This document shows, piece by piece, positions 6,322 through 53,527 of a DNA stretch of 53,527 bases. The notes under the pieces were generated by a model. That model saw nothing but the letters and a program-made list of their open reading frames with translations. It did no database searches and was not told where the DNA came from. Source of the stretch: an uncultured Gammaproteobacteria bacterium (lineage in GTDB: Bacteria; Patescibacteriota; Microgenomatia; UBA10105; UBA927). The translations under genes were made by a program, and so were the position numbers. The DNA lies in contig CAZGOA010000007.1 of NCBI GenBank assembly GCA_964527425.1, positions 1-53,527 of the forward strand, given 5' to 3'. How positions within the stretch are numbered: position 1 is the stretch's first letter; every line of letters begins with the position of its first letter.

Positions 6322-7764
6322 ATGGGATTTGAAAAAAAAGAACTTAAAAAGAAATCAGATAACATTTCGGATTGGTATAATGATGTTGTATTAAAAGCTC
6401 AGATAGCAGACTATGGGCCTGCAAAAGGTACCATGGTTATTCGTCCGTACGGATATGCTATTTGGGAGCGTGTTCAGCAAATACTCGATAGATTATTTAA
6501 GGAAGCTGATGTGCAAAATGCATACTTCCCTTTATTATTTCCATATTCATTATTAGAAAAAGAAAAAGAACATGTTGAAGGATTTTCTCCGGAACTAGCA
6601 GTTGTTACCCAAGGTGGTGGAGAAGAATTAAAAGATCCACTAGTAGTACGGCCTACTTCTGAAACGATCATGTATGTCATGTATGCAAAATGGATCCAAA
6701 GTTGGAGAGATTTACCTGTACTTATTAATCAATGGAATAATGTTGTGCGTTGGGAGAAACGAACATATCTTTTTTTGAGAACTTCAGAATTTTTGTGGCA
6801 GGAAGGACATACTGCACATGCTACTGAACAAGAAGCAGAAGAGATGACAACACAAGCTCTCGAATGGTATCGCAAAGTATATGAAGAATATTATGCTATT
6901 CCCGTTATCCTTGGGAAAAAGAGTGAAAAGGAGAAATTTGCCGGTGCTAAACATACCTATACTGTAGAAGCATTAATGCCGGACGGAAAAGCACTTCAAG
7001 CCTGTACGTCACATAACCTTGGTCAAAATTTTTCTAAAGCATTTGATATCAGTTTTCAAACCAAGGAAGGCGCAAAAGAATATGTCCATCAAACATCCTG
7101 GGGATTTTCTACACGAAGTATCGGTGGATTATTTTTAACTCATGGTGATGATCAGGGACTCATACTACCGCCCAAAATTGCACCAATTCAAATAGTTGTC
7201 ATGCCTATACCCAAAAAAGGTGAAGATAATGATCTTCTAGATGCATACTGCCAAGATTTACGGGAAATGCTTTTTAATGGTGGAATACGTACAAAGTATG
7301 ATAAGAGAGAAGAACCAAGTGTGGGTCGACGATTTAACGAGTGGGAGATAAAAGGTGTTCCACTGCGCTATGAAGTGGGAACAAATGAAGTTAAAAATCG
7401 AACTGTAACGATAGTACGAAGGGATACAGGAGATAAAAAAACAATTGATCGATCTCATGTACTCGTTGAGACAGAACATATCCTCGATCAAATGCAAAAA
7501 GATCTCTATCAAAAAGCATTAACGTTTCAACAGGAACATACACATGAAGTAGAATCATATGAAGAATTTAAAGAAATTATGAGTACTAAACGAGGGTTCA
7601 TAAAAGCATTTTGGTGTGAAAATCCTCAATGTGAAGAAAAAATAAAAGAAGAAACGAAAGCAACTACGCGATGTTTGCCCATAAATACTATAGACGAAAC
7701 TGGAACATGTATATATTGTAAACAATCAGCAACACATAAATGGATTTTTGCTCAGGCATATTAA
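6322..7764 (+). CDS. proS: Proline--tRNA ligase, archaeal/eukaryotic type (no insertion editing domain)
   Basis: RPTSET, FLRTSEFLWQEGHT, QTSWGFSTR, C-terminal Zn-binding region. Confidence 0.96.
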   Translation: MGFEKKELKKKSDNISDWYNDVVLKAQIADYGPAKGTMVIRPYGYAIWERVQQILDRLFKEADVQNAYFPLLFPYSLLEKEKEHVEGFSPELAVVTQGGGEELKDPLVVRPTSETIMYVMYAKWIQSWRDLPVLINQWNNVVRWEKRTYLFLRTSEFLWQEGHTAHATEQEAEEMTTQALEWYRKVYEEYYAIPVILGKKSEKEKFAGAKHTYTVEALMPDGKALQACTSHNLGQNFSKAFDISFQTKEGAKEYVHQTSWGFSTRSIGGLFLTHGDDQGLILPPKIAPIQIVVMPIPKKGEDNDLLDAYCQDLREMLFNGGIRTKYDKREEPSVGRRFNEWEIKGVPLRYEVGTNEVKNRTVTIVRRDTGDKKTIDRSHVLVETEHILDQMQKDLYQKALTFQQEHTHEVESYEEFKEIMSTKRGFIKAFWCENPQCEEKIKEETKATTRCLPINTIDETGTCIYCKQSATHKWIFAQAY

Positions 7765-38692: not shown

Positions 38693-40909
38693 ATGAAAAA
38701 AATGTTTGCATTACTATTGGCTATCGTTTTAACAGTACATACTGCTACTCCAATTGTTTTTGCAATTAGTCCTCCAGCACCTCCAACAGCTCCTACCGCA
38801 CCAGCAGAGCCTACTCCACAAGCACCTGAACCAACACCTCCATCTCAACCTGATGCACCAACACCACCTAGTCAGCCAACACCATCGATAGGTGATCAAC
38901 AAAATGAGGAAGATGAAGATCAAAACGTAGATCAAAATGAAAACAATAATACTGAAGAACATGAAGATGAACAAGAACACAGTCAACCTGCAACAGCCGC
39001 TCAAGAACAACCAACACCTACACCAACCCCATCCACTGGAGGAGGAAATGTCGGTGATACTCGCATAATAACCGGAGATGCAAATAACACCGCTGCAGTA
39101 CTCACTGAAGCAAACACCAACGGGTCTGTTTCTACACCTGATGGAGGAAGTGGTGCAAGTATAGTAAATCAGGGAAATGGCAGTAATTCTGATAACACTT
39201 CATCTGCATCCATAATCGAAGATGACCAAACAATTCAAAACAATAATGCAGTTGTAAACAACGATCTTCAACTTGATTCTGATACAGGGAACAATGACAG
39301 CTCAAAAAATGTTGGAAATACTATTGTCAAAACTGGTGATGCAAATGTTTCAGGCACGGTCATCACAGCTGTAAATACAAACGTTGATGGCGTTATGGTA
39401 TCTGAGTTTAATATTGCAGATGATCATCAAGGAGATATAATTTTAGATTTTGGCAATAATTGTATCTCTGGTTGTGGTACTGGAAGCACACTTGCAAAAA
39501 ACACAGGTAATGGTTCTAATTCTGATAATGCTGCAACAGTTGATTCGACATCAAATACAGCTTCATTTCAAAACAATGATGCAACAGTTGGTAACAATCT
39601 GGTCCTTGACGCAAATTCTGGAAATAACCAGGCAAATGCTAATACAGGAGGAGACAGTGTTATTTATACCGGAGATGCCAATGTGTCTGCAAACGCCTTA
39701 ACGTTTGCCAATAACAATTTTTCTGGAAACGTGGTTTATGGAGTAGTAAATATCTACGGCGATTTAGTAGGGGATATTATTTTCCCTGAGGAACAAATGA
39801 CGAACTGCTGTGGAACAACTAATCAAACAGCACAAAATTCTGGAAATGGCAGTAACTCTACAAATAATGCCAATACGACAACAACGAATACTGACCTTGC
39901 ATTTCAAAATAATGACGCGGTCATTGATAACAATTTAATACTTGATGCAGAAACTGGAAATAATGATGTAAGTAGAAATACAAATGGTGATAACAGAGTC
40001 TATACAGGTGACTCCAATGTCACAGCAAATGTAGTAAATGTTGCAAACAATAACTTAAACGGTGGAAACATGTGGCTTGTGATTATTAACGAAGCAGGGA
40101 AATGGATCGGAAAAATAATGGGAGCTGACCCTGGTGCATCTATGGCTGCATCTGAAGGTACTATCTTAACAACGAATGAAAAAGGAGAGATAGTTGCATC
40201 CAATCAAGGAAATGGATCTGGTTCAAGCAACGATGCCAATACTAACTCAACAAATAATTCTACAACTGTTCAAAATAATGCTGCAAACATCCAAAATACT
40301 CTTGACTTATCAGCAAATACAGGTGGAAATCAAGCAAGCAACAATACTGGTGGAAACTCAAGTATTGTTACCGGCGATGCAAACATCATTGCCAACATGA
40401 TCAACTTTGTGAACAATAATATCGTTGGAGACAGCAAGTTATTCGTCACAGTAGTAAATGTCTTTGGCAGCTGGCTTGGTGACTTTGTAACACCAGGTCA
40501 AACCAAGGAACAAAACGTCATTGCTCAGTCAAATGATACTGAAGAGACAACGACGACAACTCAACAATATCAACAAACAGTTGTGACACCTACCCCAACT
40601 ACTACTCAAGAAGGTTCAACAGCAGTTACTGTTTCACCCTCTACACAAGTATCGTTAGTACAACGTAGAGCCGCAGTGTTAGGAACACAACAACGAGAAA
40701 TTGAGAACACAGGTAATAATTCTGCAGTCACCTTTGATGGAGAACAAATAGAGATTGCACCTGAGGCAACTATTACACCAGTCGTTGCCGGTAAAAAAGT
40801 CATAACCCTAAACTTAGCCTGGTTGATCATGCTAATCCCAGGTGTTATAATACTTGCTGTCGGAAGAAAAGTAGTACGCTTTACACTTCGACGCATGCCC
40901 CGCTCTTAA
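38693..40909 (+). CDS. Secreted repeat protein B: Pro-rich stalk, four full repeats plus one partial, C-terminal TM anchor
   Basis: Signal peptide, PTAPTAP region, GNGSNS.N/TGDAN repeats, TM followed by RKVVRFTLRR. Confidence 0.85.
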   Translation: MKKMFALLLAIVLTVHTATPIVFAISPPAPPTAPTAPAEPTPQAPEPTPPSQPDAPTPPSQPTPSIGDQQNEEDEDQNVDQNENNNTEEHEDEQEHSQPATAAQEQPTPTPTPSTGGGNVGDTRIITGDANNTAAVLTEANTNGSVSTPDGGSGASIVNQGNGSNSDNTSSASIIEDDQTIQNNNAVVNNDLQLDSDTGNNDSSKNVGNTIVKTGDANVSGTVITAVNTNVDGVMVSEFNIADDHQGDIILDFGNNCISGCGTGSTLAKNTGNGSNSDNAATVDSTSNTASFQNNDATVGNNLVLDANSGNNQANANTGGDSVIYTGDANVSANALTFANNNFSGNVVYGVVNIYGDLVGDIIFPEEQMTNCCGTTNQTAQNSGNGSNSTNNANTTTTNTDLAFQNNDAVIDNNLILDAETGNNDVSRNTNGDNRVYTGDSNVTANVVNVANNNLNGGNMWLVIINEAGKWIGKIMGADPGASMAASEGTILTTNEKGEIVASNQGNGSGSSNDANTNSTNNSTTVQNNAANIQNTLDLSANTGGNQASNNTGGNSSIVTGDANIIANMINFVNNNIVGDSKLFVTVVNVFGSWLGDFVTPGQTKEQNVIAQSNDTEETTTTTQQYQQTVVTPTPTTTQEGSTAVTVSPSTQVSLVQRRAAVLGTQQREIENTGNNSAVTFDGEQIEIAPEATITPVVAGKKVITLNLAWLIMLIPGVIILAVGRKVVRFTLRRMPRS

Positions 40910-50877: not shown

Positions 50878-51684
50878 TTATAGTATCACTTTCGAGCTGA
50901 TATTACCATCTTTCCCGATGATAGCTGCTGCAGCGTATTTTCCTTCTTCGATTGCTCTTTCAATATTTTTATCTTGATCATATGACAGTGAAAAATGTAA
51001 CGCAAAATTATCTCCAGCTCCTGTAACATCCACTACCGATGAAACATTTGGTGCTTTAAAAAAGAGCGATGCCTCTGAATGTCTCAATATTTCACCGCCA
51101 TGTTTTCCTTTCGTTATTATAACCGCTTGAATTTCTTTACTCATTGGCTGTGTTTCCTTAATAATTGCCCATTCTTCTTCATTAGAAAATAATAATTTTG
51201 CTTTATCAAATAATGGTATATACAAATACTCAGGATGTTTAATTATTTGAGGACCGGGAATATAGATTATATTTCTGTTGTGTATGAGAGGATAGATTTT
51301 TTGTAGTAGTGAAAGAGGGGAATTTACAATAAATATAAGATCAAAAGATTGTATATATGCTTTAGGAGGATTAATTTTGGGAAAATAGGGAAGTGATCCA
51401 TTATCTTTCCAAATTCTTTGGGTGCTTAGGTGTTCAATATCGATTGGAATATGGCATGTGGGTATAGATGATGCATGCAAAAAACTATACAGGAATTGCA
51501 CTGAATTTTTTTTAAGTATTTGTTTATACCAACGTCCGTTTTTATCGTCTGACAATACTGTTAACAGATGTGATTCTATTCCTAACGTAGAAGCATTTAG
51601 AGAAAGTGCTCCGGCTGCTCCTCCAGGATACTGTTTACCTTTAATATAATCTACTGTAGCAAAACCTACAAAAAGACATTTCAT
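50878..51684 (-). CDS. PfkB-family kinase
   Basis: YPGGAAG, SNEEEW, ITKGKHG, DVTGAGDNF. Confidence 0.85.
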   Translation of the reverse strand: MKCLFVGFATVDYIKGKQYPGGAAGALSLNASTLGIESHLLTVLSDDKNGRWYKQILKKNSVQFLYSFLHASSIPTCHIPIDIEHLSTQRIWKDNGSLPYFPKINPPKAYIQSFDLIFIVNSPLSLLQKIYPLIHNRNIIYIPGPQIIKHPEYLYIPLFDKAKLLFSNEEEWAIIKETQPMSKEIQAVIITKGKHGGEILRHSEASLFFKAPNVSSVVDVTGAGDNFALHFSLSYDQDKNIERAIEEGKYAAAAIIGKDGNISSKVIL

Positions 51685-51753: not shown

Positions 51754-52389
51754 ATGAAGAATAATATTATCGAGATGTTGAAATCGGTGGGTGCAATTAT
51801 TACAGATAGTCACGTTGTGTACACATCAGGAAAACATGGAAGTGTGTATATCAATAAAGATGCATTATATCCTCATACCGCTCTATCTTCTCAGGTAGGT
51901 CAGATGTTTGCAGAACTAAATAAACAATTAGATATCGATGTGGTTGTCGCTCCAGCATTAGGTGGCATTATTTTGTCTCAATGGACAGCATATCATTTAT
52001 CAGCAATAAAAAAGAAAGAAATACTTGGTGTTTATACTGAAAAGGATGCTGATAAAAATCAGATTTTTACCAGAGGATATGATTCGTACATAAAAGGGAA
52101 AAAAATATTAGTTATTGAGGATTTAACGACAACAGGAGGGTCTGTTCTGAACGTTGTTACACGTGTGCGTGATACTGGTGGAACAGTGGTTGGAGTCTCA
52201 GTTATGGTAAACAGAAATCCTGATCAAGTAAATGAATCACTTTTTAATGCACCGTTTTCAGCTTTAGGATTAGTAAGGGCAGAAGCATTTGATGAAGTCA
52301 ATTGTCCGTTGTGTAAAAAATCCATTCCTGTCAATACAACTGTTGGTCATGGTAAAAAATATCTCGAATCTAAACGTAGTACTAATTGA
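51754..52389 (+). CDS. pyrE: Orotate phosphoribosyltransferase
   Basis: SHVVYTSGKHGSVYINKD, LVIEDLTTTGGS, C-terminal CPLC. Confidence 0.85.
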   Translation: MKNNIIEMLKSVGAIITDSHVVYTSGKHGSVYINKDALYPHTALSSQVGQMFAELNKQLDIDVVVAPALGGIILSQWTAYHLSAIKKKEILGVYTEKDADKNQIFTRGYDSYIKGKKILVIEDLTTTGGSVLNVVTRVRDTGGTVVGVSVMVNRNPDQVNESLFNAPFSALGLVRAEAFDEVNCPLCKKSIPVNTTVGHGKKYLESKRSTN

Positions 52390-52587
52390 CTTAACAGTAT
52401 CAATATAGTACTATTTTTTTGTTATGATGCTTCATTGCACCACCACTAAACAGATTACTCCCAACTCCTTGGGGAGATGTGTGGTGGCTTTCACCTAAAA
52501 ACCACGACATACCTTCCCAAGAAAAGAGGGAAGGTACAACTAACAACAATATAGTGTGTGTTAGAGAAAGGTATAAAGGTGAGAGAT

Positions 52588-52920
52588 ATGACACAACGTC
52601 TTCCTCTCAATGTTTCACATTACGACGATAGAACGATCGTCACATTTTTAACTCATAAAGGAGGGAATACATTAGAAACAATGTTTAAATACCTTGTTGA
52701 AGAATTTCCCTTAGCTCCTGCTGTTGAGTTATTAAAAGTAGTAGATCCAGATATTGAACACTTTTTGTCTGATAATCCTACCGTTTTAGAAGAACAGGAA
52801 TCTAAAGACGCTGTATTAGTTTCAAAAAAAATGAATGCTGATGTCTGGAATAGAATTGATGAGTTTCGAAAATCCTACAAGCGTTGGCGAAAGGAAGTAT
52901 CAACAAGTCGATATGTATAA
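52588..52920 (+). CDS. Hypothetical protein
   Basis: Open frame with SD-like AAGGTGA upstream. Confidence 0.55.
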   Translation: MTQRLPLNVSHYDDRTIVTFLTHKGGNTLETMFKYLVEEFPLAPAVELLKVVDPDIEHFLSDNPTVLEEQESKDAVLVSKKMNADVWNRIDEFRKSYKRWRKEVSTSRYV

Positions 52921-52933
52921 TAATAGTATTCAA

Positions 52934-52999
52934 ATGATTAGCAACAACGCTACTGCTATCTGCACTACCACTACCACACTCGCGCGGGGGTTTTTGTGA
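52934..52999 (+). CDS. Thr-rich leader peptide MISNNATAICTTTTTLARGFL
   Basis: Six Thr codons, five consecutive (ACT ACC ACT ACC ACA), directly upstream of a terminator and thrS. Confidence 0.8.
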   Translation: MISNNATAICTTTTTLARGFL

Positions 53000-53023
53000 T
53001 GAACTACATCAGATAAAACAAAG

Positions 53024-53048
53024 AACCTCCCGAAAAGGAGGTTTTTTT
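53024..53048 (+). terminator. Attenuator terminator of the thrS leader
   Basis: AACCTCC-cgaaaa-GGAGGTT followed by further Ts. Confidence 0.8.
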
Positions 53049-53089
53049 ATGGTATGTTTGCAGATGAAAAGCTATAATAAGGAGAATTT

Positions 53090-53527
53090 ATGAATAAACA
53101 ATCGCCAGAATATCTTAACAATTTACGTCATTCGTGTGCTCATTTACTTGCTGCGGCAGTGATGAAGCTCTGGCCGGATACGAAACGCACTATTGGTCCG
53201 GCTATAGAAAATGGATTTTATTTTGATTTTGAGTTTAGCAAGCCTGTGTCTGAGGAAGATTTTCCTAAAATTGAGGAGACCATGAGACAATTAGTAAAAG
53301 AATGGAAGTCATTTGAAAAACACGAATTATCTCGTGAGGAAGCACTAAAAGAATATCCTAACAATCCGTATAAAGAAGAACTCATTAATGAATTTACAGA
53401 GAATGGCAAACTCCCTGTAAGTTTTTATAAATCTGGAGAATATTGGGATCTGTGCAAAGGTGGACATGTACAGTATCCAAGCTCTGAAGTTAAGCATTTT
53501 AAACTACTCAGTGTTGCTGGAGCATAT
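53090..53527 (+). CDS. thrS: Threonine--tRNA ligase, 5' part (runs off the window)
   Basis: LRHSCAHLLAAAV...TIGPAIENGFYFDF...DLCKGGHV; SD AAGGAG. Confidence 0.95.
   Translation, partial: MNKQSPEYLNNLRHSCAHLLAAAVMKLWPDTKRTIGPAIENGFYFDFEFSKPVSEEDFPKIEETMRQLVKEWKSFEKHELSREEALKEYPNNPYKEELINEFTENGKLPVSFYKSGEYWDLCKGGHVQYPSSEVKHFKLLSVAGAY

Follow-up and report, generated by a model that had tools for sequence, protein, structure and literature searches.

The gene for threonyl-tRNA synthetase (ThrRS), thrS, is controlled by T-boxes in Firmicutes and by an operator that ThrRS itself binds in E. coli. Here we describe a different arrangement at the end of contig CAZGOA010000007.1, a stretch of 53,527 nucleotides (nt) from an uncultured bacterium belonging to the Candidate Phyla Radiation (CPR, Patescibacteria), to which we refer at its full length as the window. 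The last gene of the window is thrS, and the region directly in front of it (52916-53092, leader B) holds a short upstream open reading frame (uORF) with five consecutive Thr codons, followed by an intrinsic terminator. Leader B is real and conserved, and its most probable role is to attenuate thrS in response to Thr by means of a leader peptide.

Which of the described systems come closest? The T-box of thrS and thrZ in Firmicutes (RF00230) acts on the same gene, takes uncharged tRNA-Thr as its signal and likewise decides between terminator and antiterminator, but it is an RNA of 200-300 nt that senses the tRNA directly and involves no translation. A close parallel in logic is pheST of E. coli with its leader peptide pheM (RF01859), where an aminoacyl-tRNA synthetase (aaRS) operon is preceded by a cognate-codon leader peptide and by mutually exclusive antiterminator and terminator hairpins, and where the synthetase is also transcribed from another source. 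It differs in that Phe instead of Thr is sensed, in its host, a gamma-proteobacterium, and in that pheM is led by a Shine-Dalgarno (SD) sequence; there is no sequence relationship. E. coli thrL (RF00506) employs a run of Thr codons as sensor and the same terminator-versus-antiterminator logic, but it controls thrABC biosynthesis and not a synthetase, senses Ile codons as well, and does not have the window element among its family members.

Leader peptides have also been predicted in front of aaRS genes in Actinobacteria, for leuS and trpS of Streptomyces, with a leaderless transcript (PMC1262725), and reported for thrL-thrS and alaL-alaS of S. lividans (PMC8079986). These leaders resemble leader B in being leaderless-translated peptides upstream of an aaRS, in one case before thrS itself. 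The S. lividans thrS leader, however, has two Thr codons only and no U-tract, and termination was called unclear by its authors (PMC8079986), whereas the window element, from an unrelated phylum, counts five Thr codons (three to seven in its relatives) and has a terminator of canonical form along with an antiterminator that co-varies. Along the same lines, His leader peptides were predicted for hisS paralogs of Bacillus (Naville & Gautheret 2010, PMC2965389); they also place a cognate-codon leader before a synthetase instead of a T-box and have a patchy, fast-evolving distribution, but differ in amino acid, phylum and sequences. For CPR/Patescibacteria, a literature search with subscription journals outside its coverage found no earlier description of leader-peptide attenuation. 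The mechanism discussed below is textbook; its interest lies in a new phylum, a new target gene and in how large the family is.

An initial annotation of the window had read leader B as a ribosome-mediated Thr-codon attenuator, and a direct read of 52300-53527 located all the features that it listed (Table 1). One small correction concerns the ATG of thrS, which lies at 53090 and not at 53091. The core of the terminator is formed by AACCTCC (53024-53030) and GGAGGTT (53037-53043), with seven T at 53042-53048. Its 5' arm has a second possible partner further upstream: GGGGGTTTTTGT (52986-52997) and ACAAAGAACCTCC (53018-53030) form 10 contiguous pairs, two of them G-U, and 2 more beyond a 1-nt bulge, with a calculated energy of -11.7 kcal/mol alone and -14.2 kcal/mol including the enclosed hairpin (52997-53011). 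The duplex of region 2 with the terminator arm reaches -12.9 kcal/mol compared to -5.0 kcal/mol for shuffles (z = -4.5), and the leader as a whole folds more stably than all 200 shuffled versions (z = -2.85). Region 2 begins 7 nt past the Thr run and ends at the stop codon. Leader B accordingly combines the elements by which attenuators are recognized, namely a uORF with tandem cognate codons, an intrinsic terminator, a mutually exclusive antiterminator, and a geometry that would let a ribosome at the stop codon mask the antiterminator strand and one stalled on the Thr codons expose it. An automated pattern scan reported a terminator hairpin on the minus strand only; this is a tool artefact, as the plus-strand stem takes up part of the T-run and the tail rule remains unmet. 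Runs of the type (ACN)5 occur twice in the window, with 0.04 expected. The other run, at 40547-40560, lies inside a 738-residue open reading frame (ORF) at 38693-40909 that has no Pfam match.

Table 1. Features of the two Thr-codon leaders and the adjoining genes at the end of the window
Feature	Position	Strand	Remarks
Promoter-like TTGACT-17-TACTAT	52386..52414	+	unchanged in L161 and L162; the uORF-A ATG follows after 9 nt
uORF-A, MMLHCTTTKQITPNSLGRCVVAFT	52424..52498	+	Thr codons 52439-52447; frame kept in L161 despite a 3-nt indel
Leader A, structured core	52466..52536	+	conserved helix 52466-91/52498-523
ORFx, 110 residues	52588..52920	+	SD 52575-85
TATAAT, -10-like hexamer, candidate leader promoter P_B	52916..52921	+	12 nt 5' of the uORF-B ATG; overlaps the TAA stop of ORFx
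uORF-B, leader peptide ORF, 21 codons, MISNNATAICTTTTTLARGFL	52934..52999	+	ATG 52934, TGA 52997-99; no SD; peptide MINNNTTAIYTTTTTLARGSL in L162, MFMNNHLYFYTTTTTIQGGSL in L161
Five tandem Thr codons, ACT ACC ACT ACC ACA, regulatory codons	52964..52978	+
Region 2, antiterminator 5' strand, GGGGGUUUUUGU	52986..52997	+	abuts and overlaps the uORF-B stop codon
Small hairpin UGAUG-AACUA-CAUCA inside the antiterminator	52997..53011	+	predicted by folding
Region 3, shared strand, ACAAAGAACCUCC	53018..53030	+	partner is region 2 or region 4
Intrinsic terminator, 11-bp stem 53020-30/53037-47, loop CGAAAA, seven U	53020..53048	+	-13.6 kcal/mol
TATAAT, -10-like hexamer, candidate thrS promoter P_C	53073..53078	+	11 nt 5' of the thrS ATG
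SD of thrS, AAGGAG	53079..53084	+	conserved in L161 and L162
thrS, first 146 codons, running past the window end	53090..53527	+	ThrRS without TGS/N1 domains

It is decisively the comparison across relatives that places these features beyond chance. ORFx, the frame directly upstream of leader B, has two homologs among 5.8 billion proteins, and these lead to two syntenic contigs, L162 (ORFx 96% identical to that of the window) and L161 (79%). In L161 the genes follow in the order phosphoribosyltransferase gene, ORFx, thrS, infC, rpmI, rplT. The initial annotation would have been contradicted by a Thr run that is not conserved in relatives. Both of these closest syntenic relatives retain the five-Thr run with synonymous changes only: L161 carries three of them at third positions (ACT/ACC/ACA to ACA/ACA/ACT), while most of the residues flanking the run differ between the relatives, a pattern that the use of the run as codons would predict. 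The predicted RNA secondary structure is preserved as well. Region 2 varies from GGGGGTTTTT in the window to GGGGTTCTTT in L162 and GGAGGTTCTTT in L161, and all three are complementary to the invariant AAAGAACCTCC; the variants of both relatives preserve or improve the pairing, that of L161 being a perfect 11-bp complement. Region 3 is invariant, the terminator is conserved with an extra G-C pair closing its loop in L161, and in L161 the enclosed small hairpin is retained as GATGA-ATTAT-TCATC despite the change in sequence.

The wider family was approached with two sets of 80 thrS loci, one drawn from GTDB genomes and the other from metagenomes, which together yielded 136 distinct loci. The ThrRS of the window is 54-79% identical to the ThrRS encoded in these metagenome-assembled genomes (MAGs) of Patescibacteria, and the nearest relatives come from MAGs labelled Woesebacteria, Roizmanbacteria, and other Microgenomates/Patescibacteria, which makes the earlier assignment of the window to the CPR a reasonable one. 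L054 and L062 bear the label Saccharibacteria. Many MAGs with a CPR-type ThrRS and leaders of this kind (L002, L003, L013-L015, L040 and others) are entered as Gammaproteobacteria, Pseudomonadales, Vitreimonas, Weeksellaceae, or archaea; these labels seem unreliable, and we made no use of them.

A short upstream uORF with a run of at least three Thr codons precedes thrS in 39 of the 136 distinct loci. With the threshold raised to at least four, small ORFs up to 400 nt upstream of thrS contain such a run in 13 of 75 GTDB loci, compared to 0.11 loci in shuffled sequences and to one of 210 regions upstream of the remaining genes at these loci; runs of at least four of any other amino acid were absent from the same-strand small ORFs upstream of thrS in these 75 loci. 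The uORFs conform to M-x(4-15)-T(3-7)-x(1-6)-stop and otherwise share little, as illustrated by MKFLVRTTTTTTTIPAGE, MQLQTTTTTAL, and MKQTKFSQLTTTTIPQ. Across the family the first two positions of each Thr codon are fixed and the third is free to vary, and the ACN run always lies within a frame from ATG to stop, the stop following 2-6 codons on. A reading of the run on the minus strand, as Val runs in 6 loci, was considered and dropped, since starts, stop placement, -10 boxes and U-tracts fit the plus strand.

The terminators and their alternative partners recur together with the uORFs. A hairpin with U-tract lies downstream of 29 of 40 Thr-uORFs, and in 45% of these the antiterminator duplex between the segment after the Thr run and the terminator 5' arm is significant against shuffles (p < 0.05). 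The sequence of the terminator depends on the lineage (CCUCC/GGAGG, CCCGC/GCGGG, or CCCCCG/CGGGGG), and the segment around the uORF stop changes in step: pairing of the stop-codon region with the terminator arm of its own locus amounts to -10.3 kcal/mol as compared to -7.7 kcal/mol when loci are permuted (z = -6.2, p <= 5e-5). In 19 of 21 loci the antiterminator strand lies within 15 nt of the uORF stop. The leaders are compact, 100-130 nt long, with median distances of 9 nt from Thr run to stop, 29 nt from stop to terminator arm, and 58 nt from terminator to the ATG of thrS. The genes further upstream vary from locus to locus (tRNA-Val on either strand, unrelated ORFs), and the leader stays with thrS. 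Conservation of the Thr run, its recurrence, the terminators, their covariation and the geometry at the stop codon all support the attenuator before thrS that the initial annotation had put forward, and we consider it probable that leader B informs thrS of how much charged tRNA-Thr is available, through ribosome-mediated attenuation of transcription of the classical type.

How would such a switch operate? From the observed features, the alternative pairings with their energies, conservation and covariation we infer the ribosome positions, the kinetic competition, the use of promoters and the response to threonine as follows. The short leader RNA would encode the 21-codon peptide with its five consecutive Thr codons. 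When Thr-tRNA is plentiful, the ribosome would reach the UGA at 52997-52999 and hide region 2 (52986-52997) under its footprint; region 3 would then pair with region 4, and the resulting 11-bp terminator with its U7 tail would halt RNA polymerase some 40 nt short of thrS. Under a shortage of Thr-tRNA, the ribosome would stall on the first Thr codons (from 52964 on). The sizes of ribosome footprints are established knowledge, and by these standards a ribosome stalled with Thr codons 1-3 in its A site should cover the RNA only to about 52976-52985, so that region 2 would be exposed. It could pair with region 3 before region 4 is made, block the terminator and allow read-through into thrS on a transcript that carries the SD AAGGAG. 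If the leader were not translated at all, termination would likewise follow. A probable basal promoter of thrS (TATAAT at 53073) would provide a constitutive level, to which the attenuator would add starvation-induced expression. Lacking an SD, uORF-B would be translated from a near-leaderless transcript starting after the TATAAT at 52916, or by ribosomes that have just completed ORFx, 13 nt upstream. Folding calculations are in line with these steps: as long as region 4 has not been transcribed, the nascent RNA has the antiterminator as its minimum free energy (MFE) fold (-14.2 kcal/mol), and masking the sequence to about 53012, as by a ribosome at the stop codon, lets the terminator form (-13.6 kcal/mol).

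Several observations weigh against this picture. At equilibrium the full-length leader prefers the terminator together with a hairpin at 52990-53019 (-20.8 versus about -14 kcal/mol, terminator pair probability 0.99), and read-through would consequently depend on kinetic trapping, as in classical attenuators. The Thr uORF is absent in the fairly close relatives L001, L007 and L081. In the window, uORF-B has no SD, and the TATAAT at 52916, previously taken as the leader promoter, finds no support in that role from the close relatives: it reads TATAAC in both L162 and L161, and its sequence is partly dictated by the stop codon of ORFx. As the hexamer is not conserved within the lineage, uORF-B may also, or instead, be translated from the ORFx transcript. 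Moreover, the -10 box right before thrS is conserved in L161 and L162, which makes expression without read-through possible; family-wide, -10 hexamers peak 6-8 nt 5' of the thrS ATG, including 54% of the leader-bearing loci. Finally, thrS has no SD in most relatives, where its translation from a read-through transcript is thus presumptive.

The missing SD of the uORF finds an explanation in the way this organism appears to start translation. Among the Thr-uORFs of the family an SD is present in 3%, and -10 hexamers peak 6-10 nt 5' of their ATGs; 51% have one 4-14 nt upstream, compared to 3-9% at control distances. In the window itself, a -10 hexamer stands 6-8 nt 5' of the first ATG in at least ten genes, proS and cysS among them. 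TATAAT-like hexamers at this distance without an SD are seen at 6322, 11941, 12974, 19503, 26053 and 43119 on the plus strand and at 51684, 44702 and 43963 on the minus strand; other genes of the window are led by an SD. By this arrangement, gene expression from leaderless mRNAs would seem to be common in the source organism. Together with the -10 peaks in the family, such starts explain the lack of an SD and make a leaderless leader peptide plausible. Translation of uORF-B by the ribosomes that end ORFx 13 nt upstream is just as good a possibility. It had also been proposed to look for cognate-codon uORFs in front of thrS and other aaRS genes. They were found upstream of thrS in relatives, but there are none in the window before proS (6322) and cysS (26053), both of which begin 6 nt after a -10 hexamer.

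A challenge comes from the thrS promoter, whose use the initial annotation had itself named as a finding that would overturn attenuation. The region of TATAAT, SD and ATG (TATAATAAGGAGAATTTATG) is 100% identical in the window, L161 and L162, despite an insertion of about 104 nt just upstream in L161 (3575-3680), which separates the terminator from the thrS -10 box and leaves the flanking elements unchanged. This conservation and the -10 peak in the family make it probable that thrS is also transcribed from a promoter of its own, located 3' of the terminator. This does not abolish the attenuator, and a dual input results: attenuation is probably an additional input on top of a basal promoter and not the sole control.

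Could leader B then be a real Thr sensor with an output other than read-through? Its RNA or peptide might act in trans, read-through might interfere with the promoter, or translation or mRNA stability might be the target. A thrS that seems to own a promoter, often a leaderless one, downstream of the terminator, and that lacks an SD in most relatives, would fit such a role, and there is a precedent in rnTrpL of Sinorhizobium, an attenuator-derived RNA acting in trans (PMC6614838). Three points speak for control in cis instead. The AAGGAG of the window lies between the -10 box and the ATG of thrS and would serve mainly read-through transcripts; the linkage to thrS is strict and the distance from terminator to ATG short; and no target in trans is known. 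We regard a different output as unlikely.

Decidedly unlikely is an ordinary gene boundary, in which the hairpin terminates the ORFx unit, thrS is expressed from the TATAAT at 53073 only, and the Thr uORF is a chance frame. The order of terminator and then promoter is indeed typical of independent units, the thrS hexamer is conserved, -10 hexamers at 6-8 nt 5' of this ATG are frequent in the family, the hexamer at 52916 is unconserved, and L081 has terminator and -10 box without a Thr uORF. A chance frame, however, would not be enriched for Thr specifically in 39 of 136 loci with about 0.1 expected and one of 210 in controls, would not change at synonymous positions only, would not have an antiterminator strand at its stop in 19 of 21 loci that covaries with the terminator, and would not stay with thrS while the upstream genes differ.

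Sensing independent of translation, by T-box-like binding of tRNA or by a ThrRS operator with the ACN repeat as an RNA motif, draws on the two modes that control thrS in Firmicutes and E. coli and on the complementarity of the ACN run to a downstream GUNGU stretch in many relatives, but is very improbable given leaders of just 100-130 nt, an ACN run always set in an ATG-to-stop frame, the codon signature of free third and fixed first and second positions, and the absence of T-boxes and of further Rfam families both from the window and from 20 leader-bearing loci. In the last 2 kb of the window, an Rfam search at E <= 10 gave sub-threshold matches only, driven by the terminator hairpin, and no T-box (RF00230); Thr_leader (RF00506) scored 17 bits against a gathering score of 55 (E = 4.9) and Phe_leader (RF01859) 19-20 bits against 55, the latter through the terminator hairpin only. 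At gathering score, the 20 leader-bearing loci returned tRNAs only, with no T-box and no Thr_leader.

A second, structured Thr-codon leader lies about 500 nt upstream (leader A, 52386-52587). It is absent from the initial annotation and is a caveat to any reading of leader B alone. Leader A has an MFE of -56.4 kcal/mol (z = -5.6), and its structured region ends at the SD of ORFx. A helix of 23 pairs is 88.8% paired over seven sequences, with compensatory changes at 15 pairs, compared to 44-53% in slid controls. Its rivals are a hairpin at 52510-18/52528-36 and a pairing of the Thr codons with GUGUGGUGG (52479-87). The leader is nearly invariant in L161 and L162, and the 52510-36 hairpin shows a compensatory change from C-G to U-A in L161. 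Homologs of uORF-A with two to five Thr are found in five further lineages (L005, L013, L030, L084 and L125), in every case ahead of a small ORF that has thrS as its next gene; a U-tract follows the hairpin in L013 and L084 and is not present in the window. In the predicted MFE fold, an anti-SD at 52488-96 pairs with the SD of ORFx (52575-85). This sequestered state persists in masked equilibrium folding with or without the Thr codons masked, and we claim no direction of ON and OFF. ORFx itself matched no domain in a Pfam search. In L005 a weakly similar ORF of 72 residues stands at its position, and other loci with a type-A leader have unrelated small ORFs there, so that the translation of ORFx may matter more than its product.

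Taking both leaders and the family together, a broader reading can be offered, if tentatively: CPR bacteria might carry widespread, fast-evolving and mostly leaderless Thr attenuators of thrS, in about a quarter of the sampled loci, and the lineage of the window might stack leader A, gating the translation of an orphan ORF, and leader B, a transcription attenuator, into a two-tier sensor of charged tRNA that feeds thrS-infC-rpmI-rplT over a constitutive leaderless promoter. If true, no cis-regulatory system that responds to an amino acid would have been described in CPR before this one, and it would be direct evidence that transcription and translation are coupled in these reduced organisms and that the coupling is used for regulation. 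CPR/Patescibacteria have tiny genomes with few recognisable regulators and mostly cannot be grown alone, and little is known about how they sense the nutrients that their surroundings or hosts supply. They would then monitor tRNA charging with a ribosome on a mini-ORF, the oldest and cheapest device known, in place of T-boxes or protein autoregulation. The module of about 130 nt is compact and directly testable in reporters or in vitro.

The patchy gain, loss and decay of the leader among close relatives also offers a useful case of attenuator turnover. In L081, the closest relative by ThrRS (79%), the region upstream of thrS (1274, about -170 to -1 of thrS) has no uORF with a Thr run. It does have a TATAAT ahead of thrS as well as a promoter and a homologous CTCGCGCG segment; the terminator is retained as AAAACCTCCC-AGTTTA-GGGAGGTTTTTT. 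From its sequence, this region looks like a decayed attenuator and hence like evidence of fast turnover. A different variation is seen in L036 (about -384 to -75 of thrS), where the Thr run (…EEKVFTTTTI before the stop) is in frame with an open frame of at least 100 residues and has the usual antiterminator and terminator after it. Either translation begins at an internal start here, or the C-terminal end of a real protein also serves as the leader.

Regarding the synthetase itself, the 146-residue fragment in the window matches tRNA_SAD with 22 bits, below the cut-off because the gene is truncated by the window end. The full-length relative in L001 (75% identical) contains tRNA_SAD, the class II core and HGTP_anticodon, and no TGS. 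In L070, L142 and L150, thrS retains the N-terminal TGS domain (MTHIKITL…), and homologous Thr-rich uORFs (…TTSITTTTA before the stop) lie about 60 nt before the true start; a strict scan found no terminator after them. Between terminator and thrS, the window contains another small frame, a 14-codon ORF (MVCLQMKSYNKENL, 53049-53093) that reaches from the U-tract to an ATGA overlap with the thrS start. L161 has a longer ORF at the matching position. This bridging ORF is not conserved outside the lineage and was left out of the model.

A last observation concerns the neighbourhood of thrS. A gene for tRNA-Val(GAC) often adjoins it on either strand, as in L006, L008, L009, L012, L021, L034, L035, L081, L083, L084, L109 and L147. 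In L016 and L034 the Thr uORF begins within about 15 nt of the 3' end of a tRNA, and the leader of L109 overlaps with a degenerate tRNA-like copy.

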